A DNA stretch of 61,729 nt, filler included, from Stramenopiles sp. TOSAG23-6 (Eukaryota), in assembly GCA_900128565.1 (NCBI GenBank). It is 2 parts of 2 records of this genome, joined end to end, with 100 filler letters (N's around TTAATTAATTAA, not from the genome) between each part and the next. Parts side by side here need not be neighbours in the genome. Positions count along the whole stretch, not along the records: positions 30,987 to 61,729 come from LT635963.1; 1 more part is not named here. The stretch is one strand, 5' to 3'. Positions within the stretch are counted from its first letter, which is position 1; each line of letters opens with the position of its first letter. Positions 1 to 61,729 of this stretch are shown in pieces. A model generated the notes under the pieces. The model saw only the letters and a list, made by a program, of their open reading frames with translations, ran no database searches and was not told where the DNA came from. Position numbers and translations under genes: made by a program.

Positions 1-52
1 TACAAAATTTCGTACGAAAAAAAAATCGAATTTGAAAAAAAATAAAACATAC
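1..52 (-). mobile_element. Introner-like intron, 5' part (truncated by window edge)
   Basis: AT|GTATGTTTTATTTTTTT..TTCGTACGAAATTTTGTA family consensus. Confidence 0.85.
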
Positions 53-19268: not shown

Positions 19269-21270
19269 TCAATCTATATCCTTATTAACGACTTTGTCGT
19301 AGAGCATTGGAAATCGATTCTTTGCATCATACTTTGCTTTTAATCGGTCATATTCAACACCATTAAAATGATTATGTACAAATTTACGTGAATACAAAAC
19401 ATCTGAATAAAAAGTCTTTCCGCCACCGTGTTCTTCAATAAGTGCATCGATTTGTCGATTATGCCAGTATTTTTCTCCCTTGTGAGCAGGGTTTCGGGGA
19501 ACTGAGCCAAATGCAGCAACATCCATCATCAAACCTTTCTGCTTCGGCTCCGCAACACATCGTGGTGGAGGCCATAATGTAGCATCGTCTGCAAGTTCGA
19601 GATGACTTCCAAATGTTGCCGGGCATATATTGTTAAAAAATATGTTTAGAAAAAAAAATCGTTAGGTACATATGAAAAAAAAATTAAATTCGAAATGGGT
19701 AAAAAAATAAAACAAACATATCCAAAAGGGCAACTTAGCATGCCCACCATCCAAAAGCTGTTGTATAAATTTGGAGGTTGTCTTGAGGGGTACACCCATA
19801 TCCTGAATGACAATTTCATCTTGATCCACTGGAAAAATCCATTTAGAAAAAATGTATTGTAAAATTTTTTTTTTTTTTTTTTTTTTTGGTTTAAAAAAAT
19901 CATCAGGTACAAAATTTTCATACAGAAAAAAAAAATTGGAATGAATGATGAAAACGTACATATTTAATATCCAATTCTTCATATATCGTAACTGTAAACT
20001 AAGTGACCATAAAACAGTGGATCGTAATACTCGACGTCCGAGTAACCAACGTACCCAAGGTATTCCCAAACGTATTGTGAAAAAATATTTTTTTTTTTTT
20101 TACGAAAAAAAAAATTGTTAGGTACAAAATTTTCTGCCAAAAAAAAAAAATTCGAAATTCAATTTTGAAAATGTACAAATGGAATTCCTAATGTACCCCA
20201 GAACATATCGGTGTCCCATCGCCAAAGATAATCATATATGCTCATACAGAAAACTCTGCTAGTATCACAAGCCAATATTACATCTAAAAAACGACCATCG
20301 TCAGGTAAGTCCTTTGGAAAAATATTCTAAAACATTTCAAATTCGTTAGGTACAAAATTTGGTACGAAAAAAAATCGAACTTGAAAAAAATAAAACAGAT
20401 AGTGAAAATGTACAATTTTACCAGAGGCATTTTCTTAAGCTTATTAGGGCAATTATTAAAAGCCACTTGGATGACCACACCTTCATTGGCTGATAGTACT
20501 AGTCCTTCAATGTAGTCAACTGATTTGATCTGAGGATTATGAGATTTGATGGTTGTAGAGATATGCGAACACTTTGTTGCGAGTCGACCGAGCTCCTCCA
20601 CTGCATCATTCAATGCCATCCGCCGAACAAAAACTGTCACAAAGGGTGAAATTTTCATTAGTGATAGCTTGACAGAAAGTGCATATCCAAGAGTACCATA
20701 ACTATGCGCGAAGCCAGAGAAAAGATCAGCGTTTTCGCCGTGCCTGTTACACAACAACACGCGTCCATCAGAAAGTAAGACTTCGAATTCAACTACCGTA
20801 TTATGAACGAAGCCATATCGCCAACTGGAACTTTCAATGGCGACACCCGAAAGTGCGCCGCCTACAGTAATGCTGTGAAGTATGAAAGTAGTGAAAGTGT
20901 TTTTAAAATGAATAATAACGTGAACAGTAGTTTGATAGGGGGAAGTTTAGTATTGCTTTTTAATAAACATTTCTTACGTATCCAACTCGGGCACAACCTT
21001 TGGTGCAAATCCCCTTGGCAACAGGAACTCGGTCAACATTTTAAATGGTGTTTTCCCACCTACTGTGACTGTACTCGCTTTGTTGTCAAAGTTGATGATA
21101 CCCACAAAAGCATTTAGATTTAGTTTTCCACCTGGAGTACGCTGGGCAGATTGCGCAAAGATCGTCGAGACATTTCCAGTTTGATCTAACCACATTAATT
21201 GTGTGCTAGCCTGCATCTGTTTCTGCGCTGTGTCTACCGCGAGCATGTAAGTATTCAGACCGAGCTTCAT
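19269..21270 (-). CDS. FAD-linked oxidoreductase, Delta24-sterol reductase (DHCR24)-like, 6 exons
   Basis: Motifs restored by removing 5 introns: VVPELDT|ITVGG, HSYGTLGY, DYLWRWDTDMFW, IVIQDMGVP, PFWI|CP, KYDAKNRFPMLYDKV. Confidence 0.85.
19625..19717 (-). mobile_element. Introner-like GT-AT intron (93 nt)
   Basis: ATAT|GTTTGT...TACCTAAC...ACAATATAT|GC restores PFWICP. Confidence 0.85.
19852..19959 (-). mobile_element. Introner-like GT-AT intron (108 nt, in-frame, no stop)
   Basis: AT|GTACGT...TACCTGAT...CAATACAT|T. Confidence 0.75.
20070..20176 (-). mobile_element. Introner-like GT-GT intron (107 nt)
   Basis: CCATTT|GTACAT...TACCTAAC...CAATACGT|TTG gives GIPF|LGIPW. Confidence 0.8.
20307..20413 (-). 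mobile_element. Introner-like GT-TT intron (107 nt)
   Basis: AAATT|GTACAT...TACCTAAC...CCAAAGGACTT|ACCT. The upstream AG is 5 nt short and would frameshift. Confidence 0.75.
20873..20977 (-). other. Canonical GT-AG intron (105 nt)
   Basis: AC|GTAAGA...TTCACAG|C restores PELDTITVGG. Confidence 0.9.
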
Positions 21271-21637
21271 TGTTTCCTTTATACTGAGTAGTGATTGCAA
21301 AGACTTTTGAACCTCGACTCGAGACGGAGAGTCGAGACACAAAAAAAGATAATCTCCGATACGATACTACGCGTAATAATATTATACACCGGGTAACGAT
21401 TTCAAAGATTTTTTGATATTTTGATATTTTATGAAAATTGAATTTATTTATCTTTTATTATGTACAAAGTTAGTTTGATTTTATAAAATAAAATCAAAAC
21501 TGTGATAAAATTACTTCAATTATATACATATATCACATCGCCATTCATTTGATTGAATTGTACATTATTACAATTGCAAATAATAAAACACTAATTTAAA
21601 AAAATGGATACTCAGTGATTCTTTCGTCCTCCTACAT

Positions 21638-24765: not shown

Positions 24766-27514
24766 TCAAGCCTGTTCATTCGCTTTGCTTTTTCCAGACG
24801 ATTTTCTTTTTTTCTTTTTCGGTTTTGCTGGAATCATCATTCGCATTCCTCCTTGCGCAGCCAAACGTTCTCTCAATGCAGATTTTCTATCCACAGCCTT
24901 TCTAGCTTCAACATCCTCCGGTGTTTCTTTTATATCAGAATCAGAATCAGAGTCTGGGGGAGGCGGCGGTGGTGATGAACCACGCCTCGCTTTTGGCGAG
25001 TTACCATCTACAGACACGGGACGCGATGGCCTCGGTGGGGGTGATTTTACTGTTGACGGAGTACTACCGCCTTGCATAACTGCTATAGGTTCAATTTCCG
25101 CATTTTCCTCGTTTGCTTTTGAAGAGGGTGAAGGAATACCACTGGTGACATCCGGCCCTTGATATTTGTTTTCATCTGATGACTTTGACACTAGCTTTGA
25201 TGCAGCTTCGATCTCACCAATTGTGGGTGATGCAAAGATACTTAACCTGCCACTATTTACACCTTTCAACGAGACTGTCTTTGACCTCTTTCTACCTTGC
25301 TCTGGGCTTTCCAGAATCTCTTCTGCAACGACAAGTTTAACATAATTTCCAGGAAAAAATCCTTCAGACCCTATTGGTATTCCTTGATCAGTAACAAGAG
25401 CTCCAGTCCACCACTCATTTACCCATGATGTCACTAAAATCATATCACCTAGAGAAAAATTGAGTCCCTGTTCATTTTCTGTTTTAAAGTCATATTGAGC
25501 TACGGCAAGCTTTGTTTCTCCAATCCGCATATCATCAACATTGTCATCCTTTGCAGAAATCTTTGAAGAACCGTTCGATACGTCATTGGTAGCAGTAGAT
25601 GCTTTCTGCTTTGGTGAAGAAGATTTGCTAAATGCATTAGAAACTCTATTGATTGACATTCGTTTTTCGCGCTTTATTTGTGCATTCATTGCTGCCATTG
25701 CTAAAGGATTTGGTTCCCTTTTATTTGCAGATAACCGATTTTTATTATTATCAATTGTAGGTGAATCTTCTTTTACTTCCAGAGGCTTAACTTCATCTGC
25801 TTCAGAGGTAAGACTTTCGTCTGGGTCGCTAACTGAAGTTTTCTCTTGTTTTTCTGGAGGAGGTGGTGGGATCTCATCTGAAAGTTCTTCTTTTAAAGGT
25901 GGTGGTGGGATCTCATCTGAAAGTTCTTCTTTTAAAGGTGGCTGTGAGATCTCATCTGAAAGTTCCTCTTTTAAAGGTGGCGGTGAGATCTCATCTGAAA
26001 TATCATTTTCACTGCATGAAATACTTTTTTCTCTGTCAATCTTTTCTTCATCATTTTCAACAACTTTTTCGACTTCAATTTCACCTTCTTGCTGAACATC
26101 TGAGGAGTCGTCCGAATTATCCTCATATTCATTTCCAGAATTCACATCAGAAACGTTTTCTTTGACTTCAGAAACAATTGGACCAGAATTCACATCAGAA
26201 ACATTTTCTTTGACTTCAGAAACAATTGGACCAGATTCATCATTACGCATACTTTTATGATGACTATTTCGGGGACTCATGCATTGTGAAAAAATATTTT
26301 TTTTTCCCTAAAAATAAATCATTAGTTTTTTTACGAAAAAAAAAAAAATTCAAACATTCAATTTTGAAAACGTACATAGATCCTCGGCGAGCTTCAGGTC
26401 TCCTTTCTTGGTAAAGTTTTTTAATCACTGCTTCTTCAGTTAGTTTGGCTGCAAAAGCTTCCATCAAATGTTTTGAATTTCCACCAAAAGCAGCGAGTAC
26501 GTTTGTCATGGCCAATATTTCAGTACGAATCATTAATGCTTGTTGCATTTGGAGAAAGTATTGTGAAAAAATATTTTTTTTTAGTAAAAAAAATCGNTAN
26601 GTACNGNANTNCCATACGAAAAAAATAAATTTTGAAATTTTGAAAACGTACATATCCACTGCTTTGTTCATTCTCAGGTCTGCTTCTCTATATTCTTCTT
26701 CACAATTTTCGTGCGCTTGCTGTCTTTGTAGAAGTTTATCTTCAGCTAAAGCAGCAACTTCATGACGATTTTTCTTTGCAAAGAATCCTGTTTTCAATGC
26801 TGCTGCACGTGCCTTTCGAGCTTTTCCTGCCGACTTTTCAAGCTTATAGTGGGCAGTTTCCAGATTGTCCATTGCTTCACGTCGCTTTCCAATCGCTCGT
26901 TCAACGTCGCTAATGAGAGCAATCAAGTTCGTCTGAAAACTTTCGACCGGTGCAAGTAATGAGGTTTGCCAAGTGCGTTCGTTATCAATTGAAATGAGTT
27001 GTTTTTGTGCGTCTGATAAACGTGTAAGGTCCTCAATATTGGTATCTACGTCATCTACTATGAACTCTTGGAGGCATTCCGTAACGTTTACAGAACTCGC
27101 ACAATAATCGCGCATATTTTCCAGCATTGCAGATGTCGCTTTAGAAATGGATACAATTTTCTTCGCCATGGCTTTTTTTTCTCGGACAAAGTCATGCTCC
27201 TGTGAAGAGTAAGAAAGAAATATTAGGGTAGAAAGGTGAGTAATGTGTATTTACTGATTGTGAAAGTCTGTATTCAAGAGAGGTTACTAAAATGACTTAC
27301 ATCTTTATCCTTGTATTTTGAATAACTAGACCACATTAAGCCACAACTTTGGATACAGCAATAGTGTAAATATTAATCCTACTGTTGCGAAAAAGAATCC
27401 GTCTCAGAAAAAAGAAGAAATATTCGATGAAACACTTAACGTAGTGTGAGGAGCGATTCTTCTTCGAATCAAATCAAAATCAGCTGAAGCTTCAAGTTTC
27501 TCCTCGAGAGCCAT
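24766..27514 (-). CDS. BAR-like + SH3 domain protein (amphiphysin/Rvs167-like) with Pro-rich tails, 5 exons
   Basis: Helical N-terminus; SH3 (AVAQYDFKTENEQGLNFSLGDMI..WWTG..GFFPGNYV). Exons joined through 2 GT-AG introns and 2 introner introns. Confidence 0.75.
25860..26233 (-). repeat. Coding tandem repeats: 4x39 nt (EELSDEIPPPPLK) and 2x~51 nt (SGPIVSEVKENVSDVN)
   Basis: Direct repeats visible in DNA and protein. Confidence 0.85.
26279..26375 (-). mobile_element. Introner-like GT-AT intron (97 nt)
   Basis: TCTAT|GTACGT...ACTAAT...CAATGCAT|GAGT. Confidence 0.8.
26556..26651 (-). mobile_element. Introner-like GT-TT intron (96 nt, in-frame, contains Ns)
   Basis: GATAT|GTACGT...CAATACTT|TCTC. 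Confidence 0.7.
27200..27300 (-). other. Canonical GT-AG intron (101 nt)
   Basis: GAT|GTAAGT...TTCACAG|GAG. Confidence 0.85.
27326..27440 (-). other. Canonical GT-AG intron (115 nt)
   Basis: AC|GTTAAGT...GCTTAAT..GTCTAG|T joins the MALEEKLE.. exon in frame. Confidence 0.6.
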
Positions 27515-30822: not shown

Positions 30823-30886
30823 GTAAGTTTTATATGAATTTCTAATTTAATTTTTTTTTCATACGAAATTTCGTACCTAACGATTT
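30823..30886 (+). mobile_element. Introner-like intron, 5' part (runs into gap)
   Basis: TGGAGT|GTAAGT...ATACGAAATTTCGTACCTAACG. Confidence 0.8.
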
Positions 30887-30986
30887 NNNNNNNNNNNNNN
30901 NNNNNNNNNNNNNNNNNNNNNNNNNNNNNNTTAATTAATTAANNNNNNNNNNNNNNNNNNNNNNNNNNNNNNNNNNNNNNNNNNNN
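30887..30986. other. Artificial contig-joining spacer (N-TTAATTAATTAA-N, stops in all six frames)
   Basis: Symmetric N runs around TTAATTAATTAA at 30931-30942. Confidence 0.9.
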
Positions 30987-31087
30987 TTGTGAAAAAATAT
31001 TTCAAAAAAAAAACTTAAATTTGTTAGGTACAAAATTTCGTACAAAACAAAATTCGATTTTTTTGTTAAAAAAAAAATAAAACATAC
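30987..31087 (-). mobile_element. Introner-like intron (3' end in gap)
   Basis: AT|GTATGT...TACCTAAC...TTTTCACAA. Confidence 0.8.
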
Positions 31088-34000
31088 ATATTAAATGGAC
31101 ATAACCAAGGCGAGCCTATATGATGGTCGCCTAATGCAGCTGCAACGGATAATGCGGAGCAGGAGTAAAACATATCCACGTATTTTGGAAAAATATTTGA
31201 AAAAAAAAATCATTAGGTACAAAATTTCGTACGAAAAAAAATTCGAAGTTGAAAAAAAATAAAACGTACACTTCCAAATGTTTGTTAATATGATGATGAT
31301 GGAGTCTTTCATACAAGGTTGTCAGATGACTTAAACTCCGAAATAAAGTATGTATTTTGGAAAAATATTTGAAAAAAAAATCGTTAGGTATGAAATTTCG
31401 TATGAAAACAAATTCGATTTTTTTGTTAAAAAAAAAAATAAAAATATTTGAAAAAAAAATCGTTAGGTACAACATTTCGTATGAAAAAAAAATTAAATTA
31501 GAAATTCATATAAAACGTACATTATCTTCATCCCATTCTTTACTTCTATTCAGTGTAATATGTTCAACTATAAAACGAAAACGCCGAAAATCTCTAGTCA
31601 GAATTTCCAAAACTGTTTTACTACATACATTGCGTTTACAATGTTTTTTGGAAAAATATTTCAAAAAAAATCTAAACACAATTGTTAGGTACAAAATTTT
31701 TTTACCAAAAAAAAAAATAAATTTGAAATTGAAAAAAAATAAAACATACATGCTGTTTGCTATTTTGATTGCTACCATCCTTACCATCACAAAATGAATT
31801 AGAATTCTGAGCTTGATGAAGGATTCCATTTGAATTATTTTGTCTACCATTGTCATAATTAAAAAGAGATTTTGGTTCAATTTCTGAACAAACTGAGCTG
31901 ATATTATCATAAGTATTCATACTTAATTTTGCAATCATGACTAACGGAAATTGTAATAATGAATCCGATGTATTTTGGAAAAATATTTCAAAAAAAATCT
32001 AAAACATTTTGTTAGGTACAAAATTTCGTACGAAAAAAAAATGTAGACAAAAAATTGAAAAAAAATAAAACATACATGCTCCAGAATCACTTATATGAGA
32101 ATCTTGTACCATTTCTTCCGGCATAAAAATAACTCGCCAATCCGTTAATAGCAAGGTACCAATTTTTAGTTCGTTAGGAGTAGGGTCAGGACAAGAACCC
32201 AATATCGCAAGAATATGTATTGTGAAAAAATATTTTGTGAAAAAAATCGTTAGGTACGGAATTTCGTACGAAAAAAAAACTTGAATTTGAAATTCATTAT
32301 GAAATTGTACATGAGGAATAACCAGTTCTGGGAGTTCTGTGGCTTTGGGTGGAAGAGAAAGAACTCTAGCCTGGGAAGCACGCTGATCTTTTGATGCATC
32401 AAGTAGTAACTTCACACGGCGTTTTCTGAAAAAGTCATTACGAAATTTTGATGCATACGTATTGCAAAAAAATATTGCAAAACAAAAAAATCGTTAGGTA
32501 CAAAATTTCGTACGAAAAAAATAAATTCGAAATTGAAAAAAAAAACGTACACTGTGTACATATAAAATGATCCCATGCAATGCGAAGCGACATCAACTCA
32601 CCGAAATTAAAAAACGTTTTCATTGCAAATTCTGCAACAGCATTTTGTAATTGAGTCCGTCTCGATGTATTTTGGAAAAATATTTCAAAAAAAAAAAATT
32701 AATTTTTGTTAGGTACAAAATTTCGTACGAAAAAAAATTCGATTTTTTGTTTAAAAAAAAAGATAAAACATACATGCTGCTAAAGATCTTGCACTGAACG
32801 GTTGGCGTGATTCCAACATTCCGCCCTCTCCTTTTTTTAATTCCATCTCTTCAATCGCTTTTACAAATATATTTTGGAAAAATATTTCAAAATTTACTAT
32901 AAAAAAATTTGTTAGGTACAAAATTTTCAAAAAAAAAAAATCAATTTTTTGTTAAAAAAAAAAAATAAAACATACATAATTCAAAACTTCCTGGGGAAAA
33001 AATGGGTTTTTCTCCTTCAGTATTTTTAGTATTTTTAGTATTTTTAGTATTTTTAGTATTTTTAGATTGTTCACTCACCCACTTGCGAAGAACCTTTCGA
33101 GACCATCGAGATAGTTGGGCACCTGAAAGGTTTACAATTGTATTTTCATTACTAGTTGTAGAAAAATGAAAACCACGTTTTGCCGCTGCAGCTACGAAAC
33201 GCCGAGTGACGTCATCAACTGCTTCTAGATTGGATCCAAGTCGAGTTTTTTCCACATTTGCTAAATTTTCAGCTCTTATATCAGCATCTATTTGAGCAAC
33301 TTCTGCTTCTTTTTTTGCTGCATCTAACAAATCAATGTGTATTTTGGAAAAATATTTCAAAAAAAATCTTAAAAAATTGTTAGGTACAAAATTTCCTATG
33401 GAAAAATAAATTCAATTTCAAATTTAAAAAAAAAAAAAAAACATACATTTGTTTTTTCTAGATCCAAACACTTTTCAATATATAATTTATCACTTGCAGA
33501 ATCGTTAGGGTTAGGATTTTGGAGGCTAAAAGGAAGCGCCAATCTACCTTCGCTTCGAATATTTCGTATGAATTGTGGAAAAATATTTCAAAAAAATCTA
33601 AAAACATTTGTTAGGTACAAAATTTCCTATGAAAAAATAAATTCGAAATTGAAAAAAAATAAAACATACATTGATTCGTGAACAATATTTTCACTCGGAG
33701 ATATCGAACAAATGGCCTCAACCAAAATTTCTCCAGTCACATATAATGAAAAGAAATATTTCCAAAAATTGATTTTTTTGTTAGGTACGAAATGTTCTAT
33801 GAAAAACAAACTTAAAATTCATGATAAATAAAAACGAATATAATAAAAACGAATATAATAAAAACGAATAGTATATAAAAACTCAAAAAAAAATCTTTTT
33901 TGTTTTTTTTGTTTTTTTTTGTTTTTTTTTGTTTAGGTACGAACTTTCCTATGAAAAAAAATAATAAATGAAAACATACATGCTTTGAACGTTTCGTCCG

Positions 34001-34792
34001 TTTGCCTAAGGGAAGCCATTCAGAACAGATGGTGCACGCAGATAGTGAACATATACTCATGTATTGTGAAAAAATATTTCAAAAAAAAATTAATTTTTGT
34101 TAGGTACAAAATTTCGTACGAAAACAAATTCAAAATTGAAAAAAAAATAAAACATACATAGCAGCTTTCCCAAGAAATTTTCCAGTGCCAATTATAGATC
34201 GTTTGTGAAAAACTTCGACTTCAATAAAAGAGTGTAACCCTTGAGACAACGGAAATACAAACATCATGTCCCAACTAGGGTTAATACCCCCCTTCTTCTC
34301 ACCCTCAATCTTATGGTCCAGTGTACATGTATTGTGAATTTTTTTTTTATAAAATTTGTTAGGTACAAAATTTCGTACAAAAAAAACAAAAATTTGAAAT
34401 TGATAAAACGTACAGGCTTTTCCGCTACCAACACGTACTTCACAATATGGATTTAATGTTCCAACAGTTCCTTTGGAAGTCAAGTTTCGGGCGCTAGAAA
34501 TTTTTACAACGATAAAAGGACCAAGGTCTTGCTGTTTGTGCCGAAGTGAAGACAACTCAAAGAACTCCTTTAATCCTCCTTGCGATCTATAAAGTCGAAC
34601 TGCAAGAGCTGGACGCTTTCTACACGATGCACGGGAATTAACTATAGGTACTATGTCTTCTACTGTAGGTGTATCTTGACCACCACCTTGATTTATTACA
34701 GTCTTCTTAGAATGAAAGTCACTATCAGACGAAGTTTCAACAGAAGGACAGGCATTTCGTTTTTTTCGTGAAAATGGGTTCCAACTCTTCAT
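31088..34792 (-). CDS. C2-domain + PH/GRAM-like protein (possibly myotubularin-related), at least 14 exons, 3'-truncated
   Basis: C2 (VKISSARNL..LNPYCEVRVG..GGINPSWD..IEVEVFH..FLGKA); GRAM-like (GTLLLTDWRVIF..QFPLVMIAKL). One continuous frame after removing 13 complete introner introns. Confidence 0.7.
31178..31269 (-). mobile_element. Introner-like GT-GT intron (92 nt)
   Basis: GAAGT|GTACGT...AAAATACGT|GGAT; GT duplicated. Confidence 0.8.
31350..31520 (-). mobile_element. Composite introner GT-AT intron (171 nt, two branch modules)
   Basis: AAT|GTACGT...two TACCTAAC...AAAATACAT|ACT. Confidence 0.75.
31641..31749 (-). mobile_element. Introner-like GT-AT intron (109 nt)
   Basis: CAT|GTATGT...CCAAAAAACAT|TGT. 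Confidence 0.8.
31968..32075 (-). mobile_element. Introner-like GT-AT intron (108 nt)
   Basis: GCAT|GTATGT...AAAATACAT|CG. Confidence 0.85.
32215..32310 (-). mobile_element. Introner-like GT-AT intron (96 nt, in-frame)
   Basis: CAT|GTACAA...CAATACAT|ATT. Confidence 0.75.
32457..32550 (-). mobile_element. Introner-like GT-GT intron (94 nt)
   Basis: CAGT|GTACGT...CAATACGT|ATGCA; GT duplicated. Confidence 0.8.
32665..32773 (-). mobile_element. Introner-like GT-AT intron (109 nt)
   Basis: GCAT|GTATGT...AAAATACAT|CG. Confidence 0.85.
32867..32975 (-). mobile_element. Introner-like GT-AT intron (109 nt)
   Basis: TTAT|GTATGT...AAAATATAT|TTG. Confidence 0.85.
33337..33446 (-). mobile_element. Introner-like GT-AC intron (110 nt)
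   Basis: AAT|GTATGT...AAAATACAC|ATTGAT; required by frame. Confidence 0.7.
33568..33669 (-). mobile_element. Introner-like GT-AT intron (102 nt)
   Basis: CAAT|GTATGT...CACAATTCAT|ACGA. Confidence 0.8.
33741..33979 (-). mobile_element. Composite introner GT-AT intron (239 nt, two branch modules, internal 16-nt tandem repeat)
   Basis: CAT|GTATGT...two GTACCTAA...CATTATAT|GTG. Confidence 0.7.
34059..34157 (-). mobile_element. Introner-like GT-AT intron (99 nt)
   Basis: GCTAT|GTATGT...CAATACAT|GAGT. Confidence 0.85.
34327..34413 (-). mobile_element. Introner-like GT-AT intron (87 nt, in-frame)
   Basis: GCCT|GTACGT...CAATACAT|GTACA; interrupts the C2 domain. Confidence 0.75.
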
Positions 34793-36058: not shown

Positions 36059-39000
36059 TCATTTGCCCTGAACATCAGTGTCGTCGTCGGTTTTAGACCT
36101 CCTGCGCCTCCTACGGCGTTCATCTTTTTGGTTCTTCCGTTTAGCAGCCATCAACTTTGCTTGATCTTCATGCTCATCCCTGGCTCGTGATTCTTCCTCG
36201 GCATCTTCAAGCAATGCATCGGTATCTTTCTTGTTTGTTGCTTTTTGCATAGCTTGTTCCCTTGCTGCATGACCAATCGCAGTATTCTCATCATGCACCT
36301 TCATCGACTGTTGCTTTCTTCTTTTTAGTTCCTCTCGTTTACGTTTTCGCCTATTGAAATCATCATCATTTAATTTGCTCTTCTTTCGTGCTATACCGCC
36401 TACTCCTTTTTTATTGTTTTCATTTGTAATAGTGGTAATTACATCCGTAACGTCGCCATCTCTATCAATGTGTAATATCCTACCATCTTTAGATGCTATG
36501 TTCATACTCTTCATACTCTTTATAGTACCATCTCCATGTGATTCTGTATTTTTTACATCAATAGGATCACTCCAAACTATATCCCCAGTAACTGAATTAA
36601 CCCAATAAGGAGCATCTTTAGAACGAGAGTAACTCTTGCGCCAATTCTGAACGGAGGATATAGGAACTACTGTACCTTTTTTCTTATTTTTAGACTTTTT
36701 GCACCATTCAAGTAGCGGCTCGGCGAATCTGTCCCGCATACAAGGAATCATACAAATCATAAGGAGAGCGCCAAATATCAAAACACTAATGTTAGAAATG
36801 ACGAGTAATTGTCCCAAAAATTCATTGTTTGAACATGATGTAGAAGTAGATATTAACAACCCACTGAAAAAGATAAAGAATAACACCATTAGTAGACATT
36901 GTTGTAGTACGTCATCGACATCTGTTTCATACGGTCTCGTATTCATTGCTAGAAGCATAAATAGCACCACTAACAATACACCTAAAATACAACGCTCAAC
37001 TGGCGTTCCTGCTAAAGACAGAAAGCCAGTCATCATCGCTTTTCTTAACATTTCTATTAGTTCAAACCACCAATATTGTCGCTCGTATTGTTCAAATAAA
37101 GATCCGTACACGCGTTTTGTGCGATGATAATGCCTATTTCTAATAAGTTCGGCCTCCGTACCAGATCCTGACAATGCCTTTGTATTAACCAAGTATTCGC
37201 GGCGGGAGTACAATATACAGACATATATAATAGGAATGCCAAAAACGTACAGAGCTATAAAAAGCATAGAAGCTGCTGCAAGTGCTCCGTATATCTCATC
37301 ATTCATATTACAAACAATACTAGAATCATCACGAAGGTAACTTATTCCGTTGACATCAAAACAATTAAATACACGAAAACATCTTGTTGCTAGCCCAGGA
37401 TATAAAAGAAAAACAACGAGATTAAACATTTTCACTGCATTATCTGAAACACTAAGCTTAGAGAATTGTGCCTCGGGGTTTACAGCTTTCAAACAACGAC
37501 ATAATATCACTGCACAGATTAAAATCATTGTAAATAGAGGTAAAACCATCATATACACATAAAACTTTGTGTCGTATTTTGTTGAAAAGTCACATGTAGA
37601 AAAACCTGCAAGAAGATTCATGAAATCTAGATTAATCACTTTGAAAAGGCGAAATAGATCGTCGAAGGCTTGGGGAAATTTGACGCCTAATGAGAAATCT
37701 AGCTGTGACATAATTTGCAAATGTCCTACTACCTGTCTAAGTGTTGCCGCCATTGCAGCAATATCAGCAAAGCCAAGTCCGCTGCCTCCAATACCACCAG
37801 TCATTGACAACATGTCATCTTTTTTTGTCATTATGTCATCTGCTTGTGTATATCCATCCTCCATTGATCTTTTCGTTTTGTTCTTTAAATTTTCAGGATT
37901 ACGAGTTTTCCCTACAGAAGATGCTGCAATATCGATCTCAGCTAAAACATTAACGTTGCGTACAAATTTTGAACCTTTTAAGGATCTTTTACGTTTTAGT
38001 CCTTTAGAAACAGTAGGTGTCTCATGTACATGTTTCTTCATTTGCATCTTGGACCATGTTTTTTCCATTTCTATAGCCCTTATCCACTCAGTGAAAGAAA
38101 TTGCCCCATTATGGTCTGTGTCAACAGCCTCTACCATCGCACTTGCAAGTCGACTATCCATTCCTTTTTTTGACAAGACGTAAAAATAATTCATCTAATC
38201 CAACAACGCCATTACCATCAATATCAATATCATTAAAAATGTCATATAAATCCATGTCAGATGCATCGACCTCTTCAAACGGAGGACGTCTACTGACGTA
38301 CCAAAATGATACCCAAAATGTTATAAAACACACTAAAATGAATAAATATGTAGCTCCGTCAGAACTTCCTCCGCCCTCACAAAGTACACAACTGACCTCA
38401 TCTCCACCTCTTACATAACTTTCAGCACATACACCACAAAGGGGTCCCTCATAACCAACCTTGCAAGTACCCCATGCGCCACCACCATTGCAAGCTTCGT
38501 GAGTTAAGTCTTCCACGAATGTAGTATTTGTTGAAGCTGTAGCAGTTGCTTCACATTCGTCATTGTCGTTTGATTCTAATGTATAAGCACCATTAATATT
38601 CTTACACGTGCGCATTCTTGCTGTTGCGGGTTTCAGTTTGAAGTATGGTCTCTCCTGCCAATAACCTTTCAAAATATGTATTTGCATATTAGGATCATTT
38701 GTCATAAATGCAAGACCTGGTTTCGTGCAATTCATTCCCGTGGTGCACATTGTACATGAAATTGCCAAGGTTTCATCGGATGAAAGATCTTCAATAAGCA
38801 TATCTGTAGCCGGTTTACCATATTTCTGCTGAAAATATGCTGAGTTAAATTGTTCATAACCTTGTACAGGTGGCTCATAAAGATCGACATCGCCTAAATG
38901 AGCATAGTACGATACTGGGCACTGGCAACGATCTTTTGTTTCATTCGTTGTTGCTATAGGATGCCAACAACTATAAGGTGCCTTCGATCCTGCTGGACAA

Positions 39001-42000
39001 AATTGGCCTTCTGTACATGGAACGATACTACTCTCATCTTGACAATACGATCCTGCAGGGCATTTAGTTCTTTCATACGCTCCCTCTGCACAACTGTATG
39101 CAATAGGTCCTTGTACAGTGCAACTCTTTTTCTCTGCCGGTGTTGTGCAATAAAACCCTCTAGGGCACGGAGAGAATTCCCAGCTTGCTTCTGGGCAATA
39201 TTGAGCTGTTGTAGTTCCCCCACAAGCTACTTTAGAATCGCCGCTACTACAATAATAACCTTTTGGGCACTTTTTTGGACTCGTGACGCCTGTATCACAA
39301 AACCATGAATCGACTTCGGCAGGGTCATATATAAAAGGATCTTGGGGCTCTCCTTCCGCTGGTTCTTCGTATTTGCATAGCTTCCTTTTTGAAGGCGAAG
39401 CACAATAGAAACCTTTAGCACATGGGGTTTCTTTAGATGAACCTTCTGGACAGTACATGCCTATTTCACAATCTATCTCAGTTTTTGACGCTTCATTTGG
39501 ACAATACTTACCCGCGCTACAAAGTGTTGCTGATGTTGAACCTTCAGAACAATATTTACCTGCAGAACATGCGCTCTTTTCACTACCATTGCTGCACCAA
39601 TATCCAATAGGACACATCTTGGGATATTGCGTTCCTTCTTCGCAATAATATGACTTACCCTTTGTCATATACGGATCTTCTGATGTTGATGGGTTGTCAC
39701 ATGTTACCTGCTGTGAAGGTGTTGGGCAGTAGTGTCCTTTTTTACAATTACTTTGAGAAATAGAGCCTGGTGGGCAGTATTGTGCCGTATTCTCATCTAA
39801 AGCACATGCTGTTTCACTCGTCGCACCTGCCTTTTCACAAAAGTGACCTGCACTACAACGGCTACCATTGATACTGGTACCATTTTGTTTATTGGTTCCT
39901 CCACTACAAAATTTACCAGCAACACATTCAGTTTTTGCATTGCCATTTTCACACCAGTGTCCTATTGGGCAAAGCAGTGGTTCTTGTGGTTTTGCTCTCT
40001 CCGCAAGACAAAGCCACGCTGTCCCTTCTTGAAGTTGAAGATCAGTGACCTGAAATGTGTCTTGAGGTGGAGCTTCCACTTCTTCGCCCAAATACCAAAT
40101 TTTGCCGGTAGTACAAGAAACTTTTGCACTTGGTATTGGGCAATACCAGCCTTCAGGACAATTTTCTTCATTCTTTCGATTAGTTGCGCTTTCATTTGCA
40201 TGAAGTACACAATACTTTCCTGCATTGCAAGCTTTTTTTGTGGCAGTGTTTTCACAATAAAATCCAGGAGGACAAATACCTTCTTCTTGTCTTTCTTTTA
40301 ACTTTGCTAATCTTTCTTCATTGCTTAGATTCTCGAGTTGAGTATCTGTTAAAAGCGGGCAAAATGAACCTTCTGAGCAAACTTCACGAGAATTTGGCTG
40401 AGCACAGAAATATTTCCCAGGGCAATGTGCCTGGTTTGAAGTTCCCAGTGGGCAATAATAACCACTTTCACACTGATTAGCTTCTGTTGATTGGACATCT
40501 GGACATTCGAAGTTTGCAGGACATTTTGTTGGAACTTCTCGATCAATGCTTTCCTTTGATTTAACAGGAACTTCCGAACAAATATAACCAGAGTTACATT
40601 TGTTCTTTCGAGACGTGTCAGAACAGTAATATGTTCCCGGGCATGACATGCTTCTCTCTCTTTCCTGCCCAGATGCCTTGGGGCAATAAGTACCTCGTTT
40701 ACATTTAGTACGGATTACAGAATTATTGTTTGTAGTACATATCCACCCAGCAGGACAGTCCTGTTCATATGTCCGATCTTGGCGATCCGCGTCACACTTC
40801 CCTTGTGTATCACAACGTTTAACTTCCTCGCCAAATATATTTATACATTCACCCACTTGTGAATTCTCTTTATTTACAAGCCAAAAGTTTGGCCCATTAC
40901 TCCATATTGCTGGGGATTCACAATCATCTTTAGCTCGTGTTTGGTCATTAGCATTAGGATCCTCCACCGCTGAAGTATTTTTGGTGAATGCTCCATTACT
41001 ACAGACATCCGCACGTAGTCTTTGTATACGGGCATTTGAACCAAATCCCACACATGAATCATCAGCTTGATTATATCCAACACATTGTGCATCGTTCAAA
41101 CATTTTTTGGCACAATCCATTGCTCCATTTATTGTCACGGTATTATCTCCATCTGCGACGTAACAATATGATTTTTTCAGGATATTTTATGAAATCACCA
41201 AAGTCCCGACATGTCCCACGGCTGCTACAGTATGTACCAGGACCACATACCGTTTTACTACTTGTAGTTGGACAATAAAATGAATCAGGACATTCTTGTT
41301 GTTGAGTTTGTCCGGTTGGACAGTAGTAACCGATGTCACAAGATTCAGGTTCTTTTGTGCTTACCGGGGGTTTCCATTCTGTTCCTTCAGAGTCACAAGA
41401 ATCGTATACATTGCTAATCTCCTCATTTGAGTTTTTATCCACACAATATCCCTCTGCCCCAATCATTTCTTCAGGACAATATTTCCCTGCAGGACATTCA
41501 GTTTCTCCCGTTGAACCCTCAATACAGAAAAATCCAGCCCTGCAGTTTTCCTTTAATAGTGTTGTTTTACAAAAATAACCTGCGGGGCATTTTACTTGCT
41601 CGTAACCCGAGCCACCACCACGCAATTTTCGGAAATTTACACGATCCTCGCCACAATAATGCCCAGGGGTACATTGCTCTTTTGTGTTAGGTTCTACGCA
41701 ATAATATCCGGCTGGACAAGGTTGTTCTTTTGTACGCGATGAGTGATCACCATAATTGTTTGCAGCGGCTCCTCCAGAAACTTTTGCGGCTCCTCCAGAA
41801 ACTGCGGCTCCTGCTGAAACTGCTGAGTTAGCGGCCACCGCTGAGTTACCGGCCGCCGAGGAGTGCGTTTTACAATACGAGCCTTGACTGCATGTTTGAG
41901 GTTCAGCATCTGGTGTAGGACAATAACTTCCTTCTGGACAATCTAATGGTCGAGTTCTTATTTCTCCTCCGGGACAATACATTCCATCGGGGCATTTACT

Positions 42001-45000
42001 AAGTTGAATAGAACTTTGGCAAAAGTAACCAGCTTTACATTTTCCTTCCTTTTCGGCATCTTTTGTATCTCGCTCAATCATTCTACAAATTTTTCTTTCA
42101 CCCTCTGAGTCTTGTACTTTGTGGGTATATTCAAGGCATGCTAACCTGTTTTGTTGGTGGCATATTTCACTCAGACCTGCTTGTGCTTCACAGGATGCGA
42201 CCCAAATTCTTTCCGTAACCGACCTTTTAAAAACACCGTTGCAAGAATTTTCTGTGGTTTTACTACTATCATTGCATGTGTTGTTAGTATAATCCCATAC
42301 TCTATCAAAATCTTTCATAAAAGGCCCACCTTTGCAATCTGTCTCTGTAGTTTCATTAGGGTCATTACAAGAAAATACCTTTGTGCAGTGAGTTGGACAC
42401 AATACATTTCCTTCTACAATAGTACTGGGACAATCCATAACTTCACATAAACCGGAACAAAAAGCACCTGCTTGACATACATCGGAATCATGAGTTTGTG
42501 CTCGATTAGGACAGAATCTGCCATCTCTACATGGTCTACAAGTAGGAGTGTGAATTAATGCGCTGAATTTTCCAGCTTCACATTCTTCACACTTGAAACT
42601 ACCATCATCCTTTTGTGTATAATGCTCACCTGGACCACATGTTAAAGCCAACTTTGCTTCACTAAAATCACCTTTACCTTTATCATTTTCGGCTTGAACG
42701 CGTACAGAAATATTTGTCGTTCTGTTGACAGTCATAGTATGAACTACATTAAAAATACGCTCTGCGCCAGAAGAACAACCCCCAACATTTGTTTCGCCAG
42801 ATGCACCAACATTGAAATTGAACCCAGATATCATAGCCCCTCCATTTTCCGGGCACGTATACTTTACTTCAATGGTCAGTCGTGTTGATGAGTCAGTTGT
42901 CGTGGCTGATTTTATAAAAGCTCTCAATATTGTTGGTGTTTTAGGAACAGTTGCGTCTAACGCTACATTGAATTCTGCCGTTAAATCTGTCCTTCCTAGA
43001 CTATTTTCACCCCATGCAGTTATTTTGGCACCTCTAGTTCCCTCTTCAAGTCTAGTGACTGCAATTGATGACCCTGTCTCTACACTAAGCCACAACTTGT
43101 ATTCACTTGATGATGTACACGAACAACTAGAATTGTTCCAGCTACATGCCGAATCACTATTGCAATCAGACTCCTCCAAAGAAGTGCAGCTACATGGCTT
43201 ATCCTCAAGAGTTGGGTTAAATGTGCCCGTTGTAACATCTCCGCTGCGAGAAGTAGTAATCATGGCTAACTCCCCCATCCGTTTTCCAGATAAGAATTGT
43301 ACAAGTAAGTTTTTATGGTCATCATTTGTGTCTGGATCAATATACGCACCTAATTCAAACGCATCGAGTTCAGTGTCAATAAGTGTTCCACTCAAATCAC
43401 CATTGATAAATGTGTGAAATATAACATACTTGTCAGATTCGTCCTTTCCAAATGCCTTACCATCTTCGTTCACTCCATACAAGGCTGGCAACTCGTACAC
43501 AACTATAGTTCCAGCAGCAGCAATATATTGAATTTGAGGTTTTGTGTATTTACCCACACGCCCATCCGGTTCCCAGAGAGGTACAGATGCAAGAACACAC
43601 ACTTGATTATCTGCATCATACGTAAATATAATTCCTGCATCAACACATTTGGAAATTTTTTCTTCAATATCTAAATCTTCTTCGACATCTCCGCATTCAC
43701 CGGCATTGATAGCAAATAGTGAACATTCCTCTTTACAATGATCTTCATTGTAGTCGCCATCGTGTTCTAAATAACAACGACGCTGATTCCATACATTGTG
43801 AAAAAATATTTCAAAACAAAATCGTTAGGTACGAAATTTCGTACAAAAATTAAATTCGTAATTGAAAAAAAAATAAAACAAACATGGTTTCTCTTCTCCA
43901 ACATTTAGCGTATGTGTAATAGATTCTTGAGATGATCCCCAACATACATTATAGTTCCTATCTATTGGTGCAATCTTGCAAGAGTTTCCTAAAACACTTA
44001 AACAATTGGACACATTCTGATTTGGACATTTATCTGAACACACGTCATCGACCCATTCACAAGCACTCCCTATATCAAGACAATCACTACTGTTTAGGTG
44101 TGCATAACAAGGAATATGATATTTTCTTATACATTGTGGTGAAATATTAATCAACCCAATATCGTTACTAGAAAATTCAACTTGTTGTGTCATTCCTGGG
44201 GCTTCAATACCGAAAATAGTATAACTTATGGTAGTGTCCTCAATATCGGAAATTATTGGGGCATCCCACGTAACGGTAATTGTACTGCGCTCTGCGGTTG
44301 TGCTGCTGGTGGTTATTTTTGAAAAATATAGAATACTGTCAACAGTAAACTTAAACTTCCAACCAACGTAGTGATGCAGCGTAGGATTGAATAGGAAATT
44401 TTCTGGTGCATCAAGTATTGTAGACATGCGGTTTGCGCATCCCGATATTTTAGGGCATATTTCTTTACTCATCGTACTACACTGACAATTATTTACATCA
44501 TATGTGTTGCATTCACATGTTTCATCATTGGAATTATATGTACAATTGTCGTCACTTGAGCATTCTGAGACACTTTTGCTCTCACAGGCACATGTTGTTG
44601 AGCATTTACACGATTCATCCCAATGACAACCACCAGTGGTGTCACATTCAGATTCATCATATTGTTCACAAGTACAACTGCAATTACCAAAACAACGACT
44701 TTCAATATTTGAAAGTGATCCTGAAATACCTGTGACAGCTTTGTCACACGGCGCAGTAGTTACTTTGACATATGGCCTTGGCGAAGTTTCTTCAAAATAG
44801 TCAATAATGAAATGCATTTTATGTGTTTTAGTAGGAGAAAGAATTTTGTCCTGTTTTGACCAACCAAACATATCATCAATCATTGGAACCCTGGTGATCT
44901 GTAAAGGGGTATCTTCTGAAATAGCATTATAAAATTCGTTATCATTCTCTAAAAGTTTATAGCAAACAGACACGTGGTCATCTTCGTCTTTATTTTCGCT

Positions 45001-51000: not shown

Positions 51001-54000
51001 TTGTGTGACTTCCAATAAATATTCAAGAGGGTTTGCTGCACCCCAATCGTAAGCAATATGTTCATTAATAGCAAGCTTACAGGCCGTTGTTTCGGTAAAA
51101 ACAAACTGCACGGTTTTATTAGGTTGTACACAGAATGAACTCCGCCAAGCTTTTGTTACACATACTTCATTTATAAGGGTACATTCACTAGTACATTGAG
51201 TAGGACTTCGGTTAAAACAAGGATCCCTACATTGTGTTTTACCAGCTATCTCTACTCTATCGCACAAAATGCCTTCAGGACCAGTGTACAATACAGGGCA
51301 TTTGCTTACTGAAAATGCTGAGCATGGATCACATGTAACAAACATTTCTACCCGGTTCGATGCATTTGTGCCCTTGTTTTTCCCACTTTTTACAACTTTA
51401 GTTGAGGTTGCACCCATTGTATGTCCGACAATGTCACAAACCGCATTATTCTCCCCCTCAAAAGTTGTTTTACCCAGTGACGATTTTAGCCTAAGTACAT
51501 GTTGCCGGAAAAGACCTGTTGGATTTGGCTTATACGGAGTTTGGAATGTAAAATATAATTTTGTTGGCCGAATGTTAGATTCAATAGTACTTAGTTGGGC
51601 AATTGCACCCATCTTGATATCGTCTACATCTATATAACCAAGGCACGATCCAACATTTTCGCTGTTTTGGTTTAGAACCAATAAATTATTCTCAGTATCC
51701 AATGCACATGAAGTGCATGAATCCGCTTTATTGGCTTCAATGCAGGTGTTACACGTTGAATGACACGCGCCCGCAGCAAACACCTCAGCAGACCTGACAG
51801 TAACATCATGGCTTTGTCCCCAATAGAAAGAAAAATCGATGTATTGTTTCTTCTTGATGAAGCATCCATTTGAAGATTTCCTTGGCTCTATTCCATTTTC
51901 GTCAATGTCTACATTATTAGCTTTGCGAATAATCCAGGAATGTTGTTCTGCTTCTGCAGTAAACGATCCGTACAGTGCACATCCCTTCCAGTAATCGAGA
52001 CCATATTGTCCAGCACCAGACCCAGCAACATATGCCTGACATTTTGGATTATCATTACATAGTTGCCGACATTCTTCAGATGAAGTCACAGAGCCCAATG
52101 TAGCAGTTGGATTTGGACAGATTGGATATGGCCTACGTAATAAACCCTTGTATGTTTTTTCCAATGGTACACACGAATTTCCTGTAAAGCTACAGCATGA
52201 ATTTTCCTTTGCTGGGATAGATTGGCATATCGAGAATTTATCTACGACACTAGATGAAATTCTTGATTGCTTCACTTCACATGTGTCTTGATAATCTGAG
52301 CCATTTGTACAATCATCCTCGTCTTCCATTTCACATGATCCATCATCACCGAAACGGCAACATCGATCAGCTTCACTTAGATTATTACACGATTGCAATG
52401 TTGTAGGATTTCTTTTTGTGGGACATAAGAGATCCACATCTGCGACATTTGTTATGTAGCTCTCGAGAGGGCGCGTAGAGCCATTTAAAGATATACCTTT
52501 GCAAACACCAAGTTGTCCATTACTTGACGCAATATATCCTTCGATACTTTCGTGACTTTTGAACTTACAGTGCGATCCACTTTTAATTACAACTTTTATC
52601 GGAGCTCCATGTGGGAGATTGTCATTCAGCGATATTGAAATGCTCTCTTCTTTTTCGGCAAGCATACAGTCACTTGAATTTGTGATAATCTCATATCCGT
52701 ACTTGCAGAAATAATAAAAATCTTCAGAACATTTTTTTCTACCCAATGCACTGCAATCTGGGTCATTCATACACTTAGTCTTAGCATCTTCTAAAGAATC
52801 AAACTCTTGGAAGTTGTACTGATGAGGAGCATCATGTATTGTGGAAAAATATTTAAAAAAAAAAATCATTAGATACAAAATGTAGTAGAAAAAAATATTT
52901 AGGTAAAAATTGAAATGAAAACATACACACGACAAATTCATCGATTCCATAAATAAATAAGCTATATTTGCGGTATCAAAATACTCTTCATCGTCACCAT
53001 TGACATTCTTAACACTGACGTCACACTGACTTTCACCAATTGGTAAACCTTTACCTTGGCTATCGATAAAAAAGGGAATATTTGCTTGGGATTCATCACA
53101 GGGTTTGACAGTGTAATATTTCCAGCTCAGACCAAAAGATGGTGCATTGGACAGTGATACATTAGAATTATTGAAGACAATACATTCTTTCTCTTTCGGA
53201 TTATATAATATTGCATTACATATACTACCCCAATTCGAGCATATATTGAAACAACTTTCAATAGTGGAGTGATTATTTTTCACTTTACTTGCTTTACCTT
53301 GTGATATTTGTTGTTGATGAGAATTTGAACCACTTGGATGAAAGAAAGAACTCCCCTCAAAACGGGGGCAATTCACATCTACGAATGAAAACTTTCGTTT
53401 ATGAACCATAAAATGTATGTTTGATGTATTCTGCGATACTCTGAATTTTGTAGAGATAGTTGTGGGTGCATGATCTGGACCAAATTGTAAGGAATCCATA
53501 AAAACACTCAGTTGACATTTACCTACGATATCACTAACTTCAGTTAGTGACAGTTCCCCATTACAATTTCCACAACGAGTTGCATCATTTTTATTATTAC
53601 AACCATTGCAGGTTTCGTGACAATCATTTAGTCCAATGCTTTGCAACGACTCTCTCTTGTGTTGTTCATCGGTAAAATAATGATTCCACTCCCTATAATA
53701 ACTTCCGCCATTTCCGTCAGAATATTTATGTCTCCATCGAATACCAAGACCTCTGTTATCATCATCGGCGGAATCAATTTCCCTAAATCTACAATCACTG
53801 TCATCATTTTCGTCTGATTGCATTATAATGGTTAACACTTCTCGATTTTGGGGAAATAAAGCAGTGGTTGAAAATTTGGCCAATATTGAAACATCTTTAG
53901 TGGCTAGATACATCTCTTCATGTTCTTCATCTGGATTAAGTGAAGGACATTTTTCATCATCTTCATCCAATGTTATGAAACCACTCTCATAATTTGATCC

Positions 54001-56255: not shown

Positions 56256-57529
56256 ATGTCAAAGGAACCACACCCGGGCGACTGGGAATGTCCCGGGTGT
56301 TTACTGGTAGTGTTTGCACATCGTAGTGAATGCATACGTTGTGGTTTTGCCAAGCCAGGTGAGTATACTGTACCAAAGAAGTTACGAGCAAAGGTATCGA
56401 GACCATTGGCCAAGGAGGAAACAATCTCAACGAAATGTAATAATAGTTTAGAAAAAGGAACACAATCCAAGACAATTCACAAACAATCACAACGAAGCCG
56501 TCACAATAAAAAACGGCGTCTTCGTCAAAGTGCTAGGAAGCCTCGCTTTGCAGCGTTTGCTCGTTGGATAAAGGAAAAGTTTGGTAATGTGATGCTCCCA
56601 GGTTGTTCTGTCCTTGATGTGGCTGGTGGTTCAGGAGGCCTGTGTTGGGAATTGGTTGCCCCGTTATCAACAATAGATTCAATTAGATGTACTGTGATAG
56701 ATCCAAATCCCGTCCGATTTAGTAGAAGAAAGACTGAAAATCTCATTCGCGCTGCCTTAGTTAGAGTTAATGATTGCAATTTCAGTGTGACCAAAGTTGA
56801 AAATGTCACCAAAATAGACTCTCAGATAAAGGTGGCACTCGACATCAAGTGCTTAGACAAGACAGTCATTGATAAGGCTTCAGATGTTGTAAGCGATACA
56901 GCTGTAAATATTCTTCAAAAACGTGGCGCCCAGCAGCTAAAAACTCTTTTTAATGCAGACTTTTGTTCTGGTCAAAATCCGAATGGGTCTGAAATCTCGA
57001 AAGATTTGTGGCAAAAATGTGTGTTGGTAGTTGGCTTACACCCAGACCAAGCAACGGATTCAATCGTAGACCTCGCACTGAAGCATCAAAAGCCTTTCGC
57101 TGTCGTTCCATGTAGGTTTTTTTATCATTACGTTTCACCTCTCTATTTTTTTTTATACCAAAATTTGTACCTAACAAATTTTTTACAAAAAAAAAAAAAA
57201 ATATTTTCCACAAAATATGCTGTGTATTTCCAACACTCTTTAAAAAACGTCGTCTTCCTGGTGAACTAAAAGTACGTACGCGTGAAGAATTATGTGAATT
57301 TTTGAGGTTAAAATCTCCGACTTATATACATATATGTTTTATTTTTGTTTCAGTTTCGAATTTATTTTTTTCATAAAATTTTGTACCTAACGATTTTTTT
57401 TTGAAATATTTTTCCAAAATACATGTAGATACAATACCTGATTTACCTGGTCCTTGTAATACGGTAGTTTGGTGTTGTGACTATTCTGTACCAACTTTAT
57501 CAACTGAAGACAATATTGTAAAAGTATAA
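56256..57529 (+). CDS. RanBP2-type zinc finger + methyltransferase-like protein, 3 exons
   Basis: GDWECPGC..FAHRSECIRC; VLDVAGGSG; VGLHPDQATDSIVDLAL..FAVVP|CCVFP. Confidence 0.8.
57112..57218 (+). mobile_element. Introner-like GT-AT intron (107 nt)
   Basis: CCAT|GTAGGT...GTACCTAAC...CACAAAATAT|GCTGT restores VPCCVF. Confidence 0.85.
57332..57424 (+). mobile_element. Introner-like intron (93 nt) with donor ATATGT; alternative GT-AG register 57336-57428
   Basis: CAT|ATATGTTTT...GTACCTAAC...AAAATACAT|GTAG. Confidence 0.75.
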
Positions 57530-61674: not shown

Positions 61675-61729
61675 ATGTATTTTGGAAAAATATTTCAAAA
61701 AAAAATCTTAAAAAATTTGTTAGGTACAA
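61675..61729 (-). mobile_element. Introner-like intron, 3' part (truncated by window edge)
   Basis: GTACCTAAC...TTTTTCCAAAATACAT|ACTGG. Confidence 0.8.

Follow-up and report, generated by a model that had tools for sequence, protein, structure and literature searches.

A window of 61,729 nt from the genome of Stramenopiles sp. TOSAG23-6 (NCBI GenBank assembly GCA_900128565.1), the whole stretch of DNA analyzed here, harbors 34 loci of one repeated element of 90-110 nt. All 34 copies are located in coding sequence (CDS), each on the sense strand of its flanking open reading frames (ORFs), and deletion of an element together with two adjoining bases restores the reading frame. We consider it probable that the copies form a single family of short non-autonomous introners which duplicated 2 nt of their target upon insertion as DNA, the duplicate being excised as the end of an intron.

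According to this model, the repeats (~90-110 nt) would now act as spliceosomal introns. Each copy carries its own strong donor, GTATGT, and a branch site TTTTGTACCTAAC, together with a U-rich stretch and a conserved block of 20 nt at the 3' end, AAATATTTTTYCAMAATAY. The RNA would be cut at the first G of the element and two nucleotides beyond its last base, and the excised unit would end in a repeat of the two bases that close the upstream exon. This repeat would most simply have arisen as a 2-nt target-site duplication (TSD), made at a target of the (Y)AT|G type when the element inserted as DNA. Since excision of the element plus one duplicate restores the frame, insertions into exons would be tolerated.

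The repeat family and its copies

A profile of four copies gave 30 nhmmer matches at E ≤ 1e-3; a second round and manual curation of the ends resulted in 34 loci, 30 with both ends and four partial ones truncated at a window end or at the linker between two contigs. The minus strand carries 30 copies and the plus strand 4. No Rfam family matched anywhere in the window, and a scan of a bacterial/archaeal genome collection for the pattern of branch site plus 3' block gave no match, as expected.

In transcript orientation, the consensus reads GT[A/T][T/C]GTTTT ... TTTTGTACCTAAC ... AAATATTTTT[C/T]CA[A/C]AATA[C/T], followed by two bases, usually AT. Pairwise identity among 26 aligned copies has a median of 0.76 and ranges from 0.54 to 0.91; the closest pair, c30823 and unit 1 of c31520, is identical at 61 of 64 bases and located in two different genes. 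Conservation is concentrated at the 5' end (first 9 bases), around the branch site, and at the 3' end (last 20 bases), and the interior is riddled with indels. This asymmetry looks like that of splicing signals rather than that of transposase-binding ends. Intron phases of the complete copies are even (10/10/10) and the host genes are unrelated to one another; both observations, and also the 61/64 pair, fit insertion of a mobile element.

The copies are listed below with their upstream/downstream flanking dinucleotides. The interval 31178-32550, which the preliminary description had interpreted as a DNA-transposon signature, comprises six of the 13 complete copies interrupting one C2/GRAM-like gene.

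31180-31269 plus dinucleotide 31178-31179, minus strand: c31269, flanks GT/GT, the least diverged copy
31350-31520, minus strand: c31520, flanks AT/AT, composite of a 3'-truncated unit of one subfamily and a 5'-truncated unit of another
31641-31749, minus strand: c31749, flanks AT/AT
31968-32075, minus strand: c32075, flanks AT/AT
32215-32310, minus strand: c32310, flanks AT/AT
32457-32550, minus strand: c32550, flanks GT/GT
32665-32773, 32867-32975, 33568-33669, and 34059-34157, minus strand: further introns of the C2/GRAM-like gene
33337-33446, minus strand: intron of the same gene, unequal flanks AT/AC
33741-33979, minus strand: composite intron of the same gene, two units around three 15-nt tandem repeats, with a 57-nt spacer
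34327-34413, minus strand: intron of the same gene, unequal flanks CT/AT
30987-31087, minus strand: c31087, partial, 3' end missing at the contig linker, 5' flank AT
30823-30886, plus strand: c30823, partial, in an SRPK-like gene, truncated at the contig end, 5' flank GT
19625-19717 and 19852-19959, minus strand: introns of a DHCR24-like gene, both AT/AT
20070-20176 (c20176, TT/GT) and 20307-20413 (TT/TT), minus strand: introns of the same DHCR24-like gene
3549-3648, plus strand: c3549, in an adenosine-deaminase-like gene, junction restores AIH|VGEV
1-52, minus strand: c52, cut by the window start
1274-1374, minus strand: c1374, flanks AT/AT
26279-26375, minus strand: c26375, in an SH3-domain gene, flanks AT/AT
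26556-26651, minus strand: c26651, in the same SH3-domain gene, flanks AT/TT
43791-43883 (AT/AT), 52834-52926 (c52926, GT/AT), and 54813-54904 (GA/AT), minus strand: copies in a large Cys-rich gene region
57112-57218, plus strand: c57112, flanks AT/AT
57332-57424, plus strand: c57332, flanks AT/AT, starts with ATATGT and not GTATGT
60154-60249, 60598-60697, 60959-61051, and 61230-61321, minus strand: copies in a transporter-like gene, all AT/AT
61675-61729, minus strand: fifth copy in the transporter-like gene, cut by the window end

A reading of 33741-33979 as two introns was rejected; an in-frame TAA closes the 57-nt spacer (translated by eye). The copies occur in clumps: 14 are located in one CDS of 2.4 kb, five in one of 1.1 kb, and three in the Cys-rich region of ~20 kb, and CDSs of 6.6 and 5.9 kb contain none.

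Reading frames and splice signals

For each copy, the flanks were joined after deletion of the element plus k bases and inspected for any open frame. With k = 2 (equally -1 or 5, mod 3), a frame was open in 27 of the 30 complete copies, as compared to one each for k = 0 and k = 1. The other three were open up to a genuine stop codon or to a neighboring intron or copy; hence, the frame was restored in 30/30. When all 13 complete copies between 31090 and 34900 were removed with k = 2, a single stop-free frame of ~730 codons was obtained.

Exon 1 of the adenosine-deaminase-like gene ends at a histidine; in ADAL structures from the PDB, the residue aligned to it is the one immediately preceding the conserved xGE. 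Comparison of the AIH|VGEV junction with nine homologues revealed that only k = 2 keeps the H-x-G-E spacing; one residue too many results from k = -1, and one too few from k = 5. Furthermore, the junctions VKL|PDDGRF, GIPF|LGIPWVR, and FWIC|PATF of the DHCR24-like gene aligned without gaps to the closest homologues, and homologue spacing was matched exactly at four junctions in total. The predicted excised unit is exactly the element plus 2 nt, without an AG end. The reading frames, the 13-intron ORF, and the homologue junctions all corroborate the earlier proposal that the introner is removed with the second dinucleotide and leaves the CDS scarless. For c52926, the register was examined by comparing the read-through ORF with 1.84 billion representative sequences, which gave two weak matches, neither across the junction.

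The donor GTATGT is strongly conserved (G1 in 32/33, T2 in 33/33, G5 in 30/33, and T6 in 32/33 copies). A nearly invariant ACCTAAC branch motif is followed by a U-run, and the distance from the branch A to the 3' junction has a median of 40 nt (range 32-51). No AG occurs between branch site and junction in 18 of 29 copies. The last two intron bases are AT in 26 of 31 copies, otherwise GT, TT, or AC, so that none of the 31 ends in AG. The upstream exon ends in YAY in 22/33 copies and the intron in 26/31, as compared to a background of 6.3%. These signals and the strict sense orientation point to removal by the spliceosome. Since the penultimate intron base varies (A 26, G 3, T 2; n = 31) while the 20-nt block is almost fixed, the 3' cut would presumably be set relative to this block and not by the terminal dinucleotide.

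Two introns of the window are unrelated to the family and end in AG, one of them with a perfect TACTAAC:

20873-20977, minus strand: canonical intron, GTAAGA...CACAG, 105 nt
59168-59270, plus strand: canonical intron, GTAAGT...TACTAAC...AACAG, 103 nt

We also considered these canonical introns as decayed members of the family; this was rejected, as the family hidden Markov model scored neither of them better than 200 shuffles each. Hence, the host splices canonical GT...AG introns and would also splice this family with its YAT/NT ends.

Shifting the register by two bases would turn the copies into AT...AC (NT...AY) introns, similar to U2-type AT-AC introns or to the 3' AC/AT classes of Fritillaria, with GTATGT beginning at position +3. 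The spliced product would be identical for the 24 copies with matched flanks, the 3' end would read A (28/31) followed by Y (31/31), and c57332 has an A where GT-first cutting needs a G. First and last bases of AT-AC introns pair as A...C. Of the six unequal-flank copies, four would yield a different codon under each register. Nevertheless, we regard this register as unlikely: conservation of G1, T2, G5, and T6 in 30-33 of 33 copies describes a textbook donor, and in c20176 (TT/GT) GT-first cutting keeps the exonic TT and encodes F at a site occupied by L, L, and F in three close homologues, whereas the shifted register encodes C. The residue slightly favors GT-first cutting. U12-type introns have a donor RTATCCTT, with the branch site placed 10-20 nt ahead of the 3' end; with the donor GTATGTTTT and a branch-to-3' distance of 32-51 nt, the copies are not U12-type.

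Elements might also be removed from DNA in the way of ciliate internal eliminated sequences (IESs), or the copies might be assembly artefacts or lie in pseudogenes. A two-base direct repeat of which one copy is kept, and short AT-rich elements within CDS, do recall IESs, which are TA-bounded. However, the repeat found here is AT/NT and not TA, all 34 copies lie in sense orientation with donor, branch-site, and U-tract signals, whereas excision of IESs from DNA is independent of orientation, and the standard code gives ORFs of up to 1949 aa. The host genes are conserved and intact after removal of the elements. We consider all of these explanations extremely unlikely.

Flanking dinucleotides and the origin of the repeat

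The same dinucleotide was found on both sides of 24 of the 30 complete copies (AT/AT 21, GT/GT 2, TT/TT 1); the six unequal pairs are TT/GT, AT/TT, AT/AC, CT/AT, GT/AT, and GA/AT. A count of 24 in 31 had been given previously: the number of matches was reproduced, the number of complete copies is 30, and GT/GT at 31178 and 32457 as well as TT/TT at 20307 were recovered exactly as claimed. Because AT dominates both sides (upstream flank in 23/30, downstream flank in 24/30), the 3' flanks were shuffled among copies, which keeps the AT preference (200,000 shuffles). The shuffled flanks gave 18.84 expected matches (standard deviation 1.35) as compared to 24 observed, P(≥24) = 0.0015; flank identity at chance level after such a control, named beforehand as fatal to the idea of a duplication, was not found. 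The entire signal is carried by position -2 (25/30 matches, 19.7 expected, P = 0.0013), and position -1 carries none (P = 1), with T in 32/33 upstream and 30/31 downstream flanks. Exact non-AT matches numbered 3 versus 0.43 expected (P = 0.0036), and nine other offset pairings of the flanks revealed no excess of matches. The asserted co-variation of the duplication persists after AT control; it is limited to position -2 and to three non-AT copies.

Flank identity was also compared with divergence. Among the 26 aligned copies, the 13 least-diverged ones all have equal flanks, including both GT/GT copies, which rank among the four least-diverged, and the five unequal-flank copies all fall into the more diverged half (one-sided P ~0.02 by our own arithmetic, for a split made post hoc). 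A paralogous empty site was not detected by tblastx of the 30 joined junctions against the window. We regard a 2-nt TSD as the best reading of the flank identity, short of proof; it would explain the scarless unit of element plus two bases, the GT/GT and TT/TT flanks, and the equal flanks of the least-diverged copies. An inner TA as TSD, with ATG-TA-CAT as an 8-nt palindromic target, was rejected: it needs a 6-nt deletion, which the exact homologue spacing excludes. TA was never a flank; AT, GT, TT, CT, GA, and AC were seen.

The flanks can be explained without any TSD if the mobile unit is the whole GT...AT intron with its own terminal AT, and if it was copied into proto-splice sites resembling CAT|G through a route such as reverse splicing and reverse transcription. 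Flank identity would then reflect two independent AT preferences, which by themselves predict 18.8 of 30 matches, AT standing at 23/30 upstream and 24/30 downstream positions. Each of the 34 copies lies within a gene in sense orientation and none is intergenic, the terminal inverted repeat (TIR) is not significant, and CAT|GT...CAT|G corresponds to the classical CAG|GT...CAG|G with T in place of the G of CAG. Moreover, matches across the intron only are treated as ambiguous for TSD by Gozashti et al. (PMC9860276). This explanation is at odds with the locus-specific pairs GT/GT (twice) and TT/TT (P = 0.0036) and with the position of the GT/GT copies among the four least-diverged. We give it a minor yet appreciable chance.

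Alternatively, as the preliminary description also allowed, the splicing machinery itself may impose identity of exon end and intron end, selected after insertion. The YAY excess at both ends (22/33 and 26/31 versus 6.3%) would agree with this, and the same hallmark is described for the non-canonical introns of Fritillaria (PMC13326754). On the other hand, the six unequal-flank copies still lie in open, homologue-compatible frames, and co-variation is restricted to position -2; such a constraint is very unlikely to account for the flanks. We know of no mechanism that compares exon-end with intron-end positions, which also counts against it.

Several observations weigh against DNA insertion with a 2-nt TSD, the reading we prefer. 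The TSD signal is thin, depending on three copies and one variable position. Flank identity, which the preliminary description proposed to tabulate against copy age, is complete among the 13 least-diverged of the aligned copies, but a Mann-Whitney test of divergence versus flank mismatch gave only P = 0.13. Perfect inversion of the termini is limited to GTAT/ATAC, or to ATGTAT/ATACAT (6 nt) if the flanks are counted, and in 26 copies the two ends scored no better than shuffled sequences (median P 0.49 for local alignment and 0.22 for end-anchored matches). A clear TIR has been defined as at least 6 nt (PMC9860276). The inner pair TTTCAAA/TTTGAAA, formerly counted as part of the TIR, is present at both ends (as TTTCAA/TTGAAA) in only 8/30 copies. 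Pfam searches of 24 ORFs revealed no transposase, a weak test with only 62 kb searched, and neither an autonomous partner with the same ends nor orphan termini were found in the window. RNA structure was not significant: RNAalifold predicted 0 pairs for 26 copies, and five single folds gave z-scores from -1.79 to +0.65.

The distribution of the copies adds to these points. None of the 34 is intergenic or antisense; non-ORF space amounts to 2.6-8.7% of the window, and unbiased DNA insertion would by our estimate have placed roughly 4-6 copies there. Copy density per CDS is very uneven (χ2 = 158, df = 16, P ~2e-25); this clumping could be due to local hopping, to insertion linked to expression, or to selection. 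Two individual copies belong here as well. In c57332, which starts with A instead of G, the ORF across the junction is open to the stop codon; a sequencing error, a dying intron, or a cut two bases upstream could be responsible. In c3549, a TTACAG that looks usable is found 5 nt upstream of the inferred 3' junction. Splicing there would disrupt the frame and abolish the HxGE motif; an available YAG thus appears to be bypassed.

Taken as a MITE-like DNA transposon (miniature inverted-repeat transposable element), as first proposed, the family could not be confirmed: the 4-bp TIR is at chance level, transposase and orphan termini were not found, and 34/34 copies are genic and in sense orientation. 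The likewise proposed autonomous element with transposase and the same ends did not appear among the 24 ORFs of the 62-kb window. An end-joining RNA structure in the style of Amoebophrya or Euglena was rejected: in addition to the RNAalifold and single-fold results given above, the inner GTACGAAATTTTGTAC hairpin lacks conservation in its left arm.

A more specific version of the proposal is doubtful, although conceivable, namely that the major spliceosome of an intron-poor protist with ordinary GT-AG introns also uses an AG-independent "measured" acceptor two bases past the 20-nt block, regardless of the penultimate base (AT, GT, TT, AC), that this acceptor was derived from a transposon with a variable 2-bp TSD, and that it originated independently of those in tunicates and Syndiniales. 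A variable 2-bp TSD fits no transposon superfamily that we can name.

Host genome and comparison with known introners

The window is eukaryotic, with a guanine-plus-cytosine (GC) content of ~37% and long ORFs under the standard code. It consists of two contigs joined by a linker (30887-30986; N44-TTAATTAATTAA-N44, an artificial six-frame stop). Both contig ends lie inside a family copy; apparently, the assembly breaks at the repeat. The best matches of the ADAL- and DHCR24-like proteins are ~50% identical, and the best named homologues span animals, plants, and amoebae at 38-43% identity. P0001, a ~50% identical homologue of the gene at 19269-21366, contains a 35-residue insert starting with YVLFSFFF where the window gene has none; this insert looks like read-through of an unspliced GTATGT-starting intron in a relative.

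Large Cys-rich ORFs with CxxGYYC-type repeats extend over ~20 kb (36059-56081, minus strand). Pfam searches at 1e-5 gave no match in nine ORF segments scanned across this region, and a Cys-rich stretch of 320 aa had two weak relatives among 1.84 billion representatives. The ORFs 36059-38194, 38154-41186, and 41143-43824 (minus strand) change frame inside A-runs near ~38165 and ~41175; they are probably one gene with homopolymer indel errors. Isolated N bases also sit in homopolymers. Due to such errors intron lengths in T-runs are unreliable, and exon frames are unaffected.

To our knowledge, Tc1/mariner-Stowaway is the only transposon superfamily with a 2-bp TSD, target and TSD being TA. Small size and 2-bp duplication are alike, but the repeat is AT/NT in the family described here.

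The larvacean Fritillaria borealis has MITE-derived, species-specific, repeated non-canonical introns (PMC13326754, PMC11282704). There, a YAY triplet precedes the donor and recurs to form the final three bases of the intron, which ends in AT or AC (PMC13326754). Both systems share repeated introns, an exonic YAY/TAC triplet recurring as non-AG acceptor, and a U-rich tract (in Fritillaria in the 3' AT classes). Fritillaria introns mostly start with AG and show poor complementarity to U1, whereas a GT start in 32/33 copies, a perfect GTATGT, and a yeast-like branch site are found here; furthermore, the co-varying repeat is 2 nt long and the host proteins look protist-like, not tunicate.

In Micromonas pusilla, the introner IE1 carries a donor and a 3-nt TSD supplies the AG (PMC11282704); family 5 of Chrysochromulina sp. 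has a 4-bp TSD, lacks a TIR, and co-opts its 3' site (PMC9860276). These introners resemble the family described here as short non-autonomous elements with a donor, an acceptor in the duplicated target, and scarless excision. They differ by TSDs of 3-4 bp and a canonical AG, as compared to a 2-nt repeat, mostly AT, and a non-AG acceptor here, where TIRs are not significant. Since introners show enrichment within genes for 161 of 175 genomes (PMC9860276), the genic bias of the window copies is also usual for introners.

Amoebophrya introners possess direct repeats of 3-5 nt, inverted repeats of 8-20 nt which form hairpins, and no consistent terminal dinucleotides (PMC7789003). Non-canonical boundaries, direct repeats over exon/intron borders, and the failure to find a transposase are common to both. 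In contrast, no significant hairpin occurs in the family described here, and donor and branch signals are strongly conserved; the GC content is ~37% as compared to 54-58% for Amoebophrya nuclear genes (PMC7789003).

TSD-derived and non-canonical acceptors are already known from Micromonas, Chrysochromulina, Fritillaria borealis, and Amoebophrya, and the family described here looks like a new variant. The features that appear to set this family apart are a donor and a branch site of perfect canonical form, a repeat of 2 nt, the lack of a hairpin, and coexisting canonical introns in an intron-poor, protist-like genome. A literature search for GT-AT introners found no description, and was too limited to establish that the family has never been published.

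GT...AT introns are beyond what standard gene finders can model; hence, if these introns are confirmed, genes like the 13-intron gene at 31-35 kb would be mis-annotated. Introner surveys based on annotation would miss this GT...AT family, and one survey dropped families with unfamiliar splice sites unless they were supported by transcripts (PMC12130899). TSD sizes reported for introners are 3-9 bp (PMC9860276), and a 2-nt duplication would, if true, extend this range downward. Textbook donors and branch sites beside non-AG ends, with canonical introns in the same genes, would be unusual; one spliceosome with two acceptor rules would make 3' splice-site choice directly testable. If RNA data confirm these introns, a further lineage would be added in which non-AG acceptors were forced or exploited by transposon-born introns.

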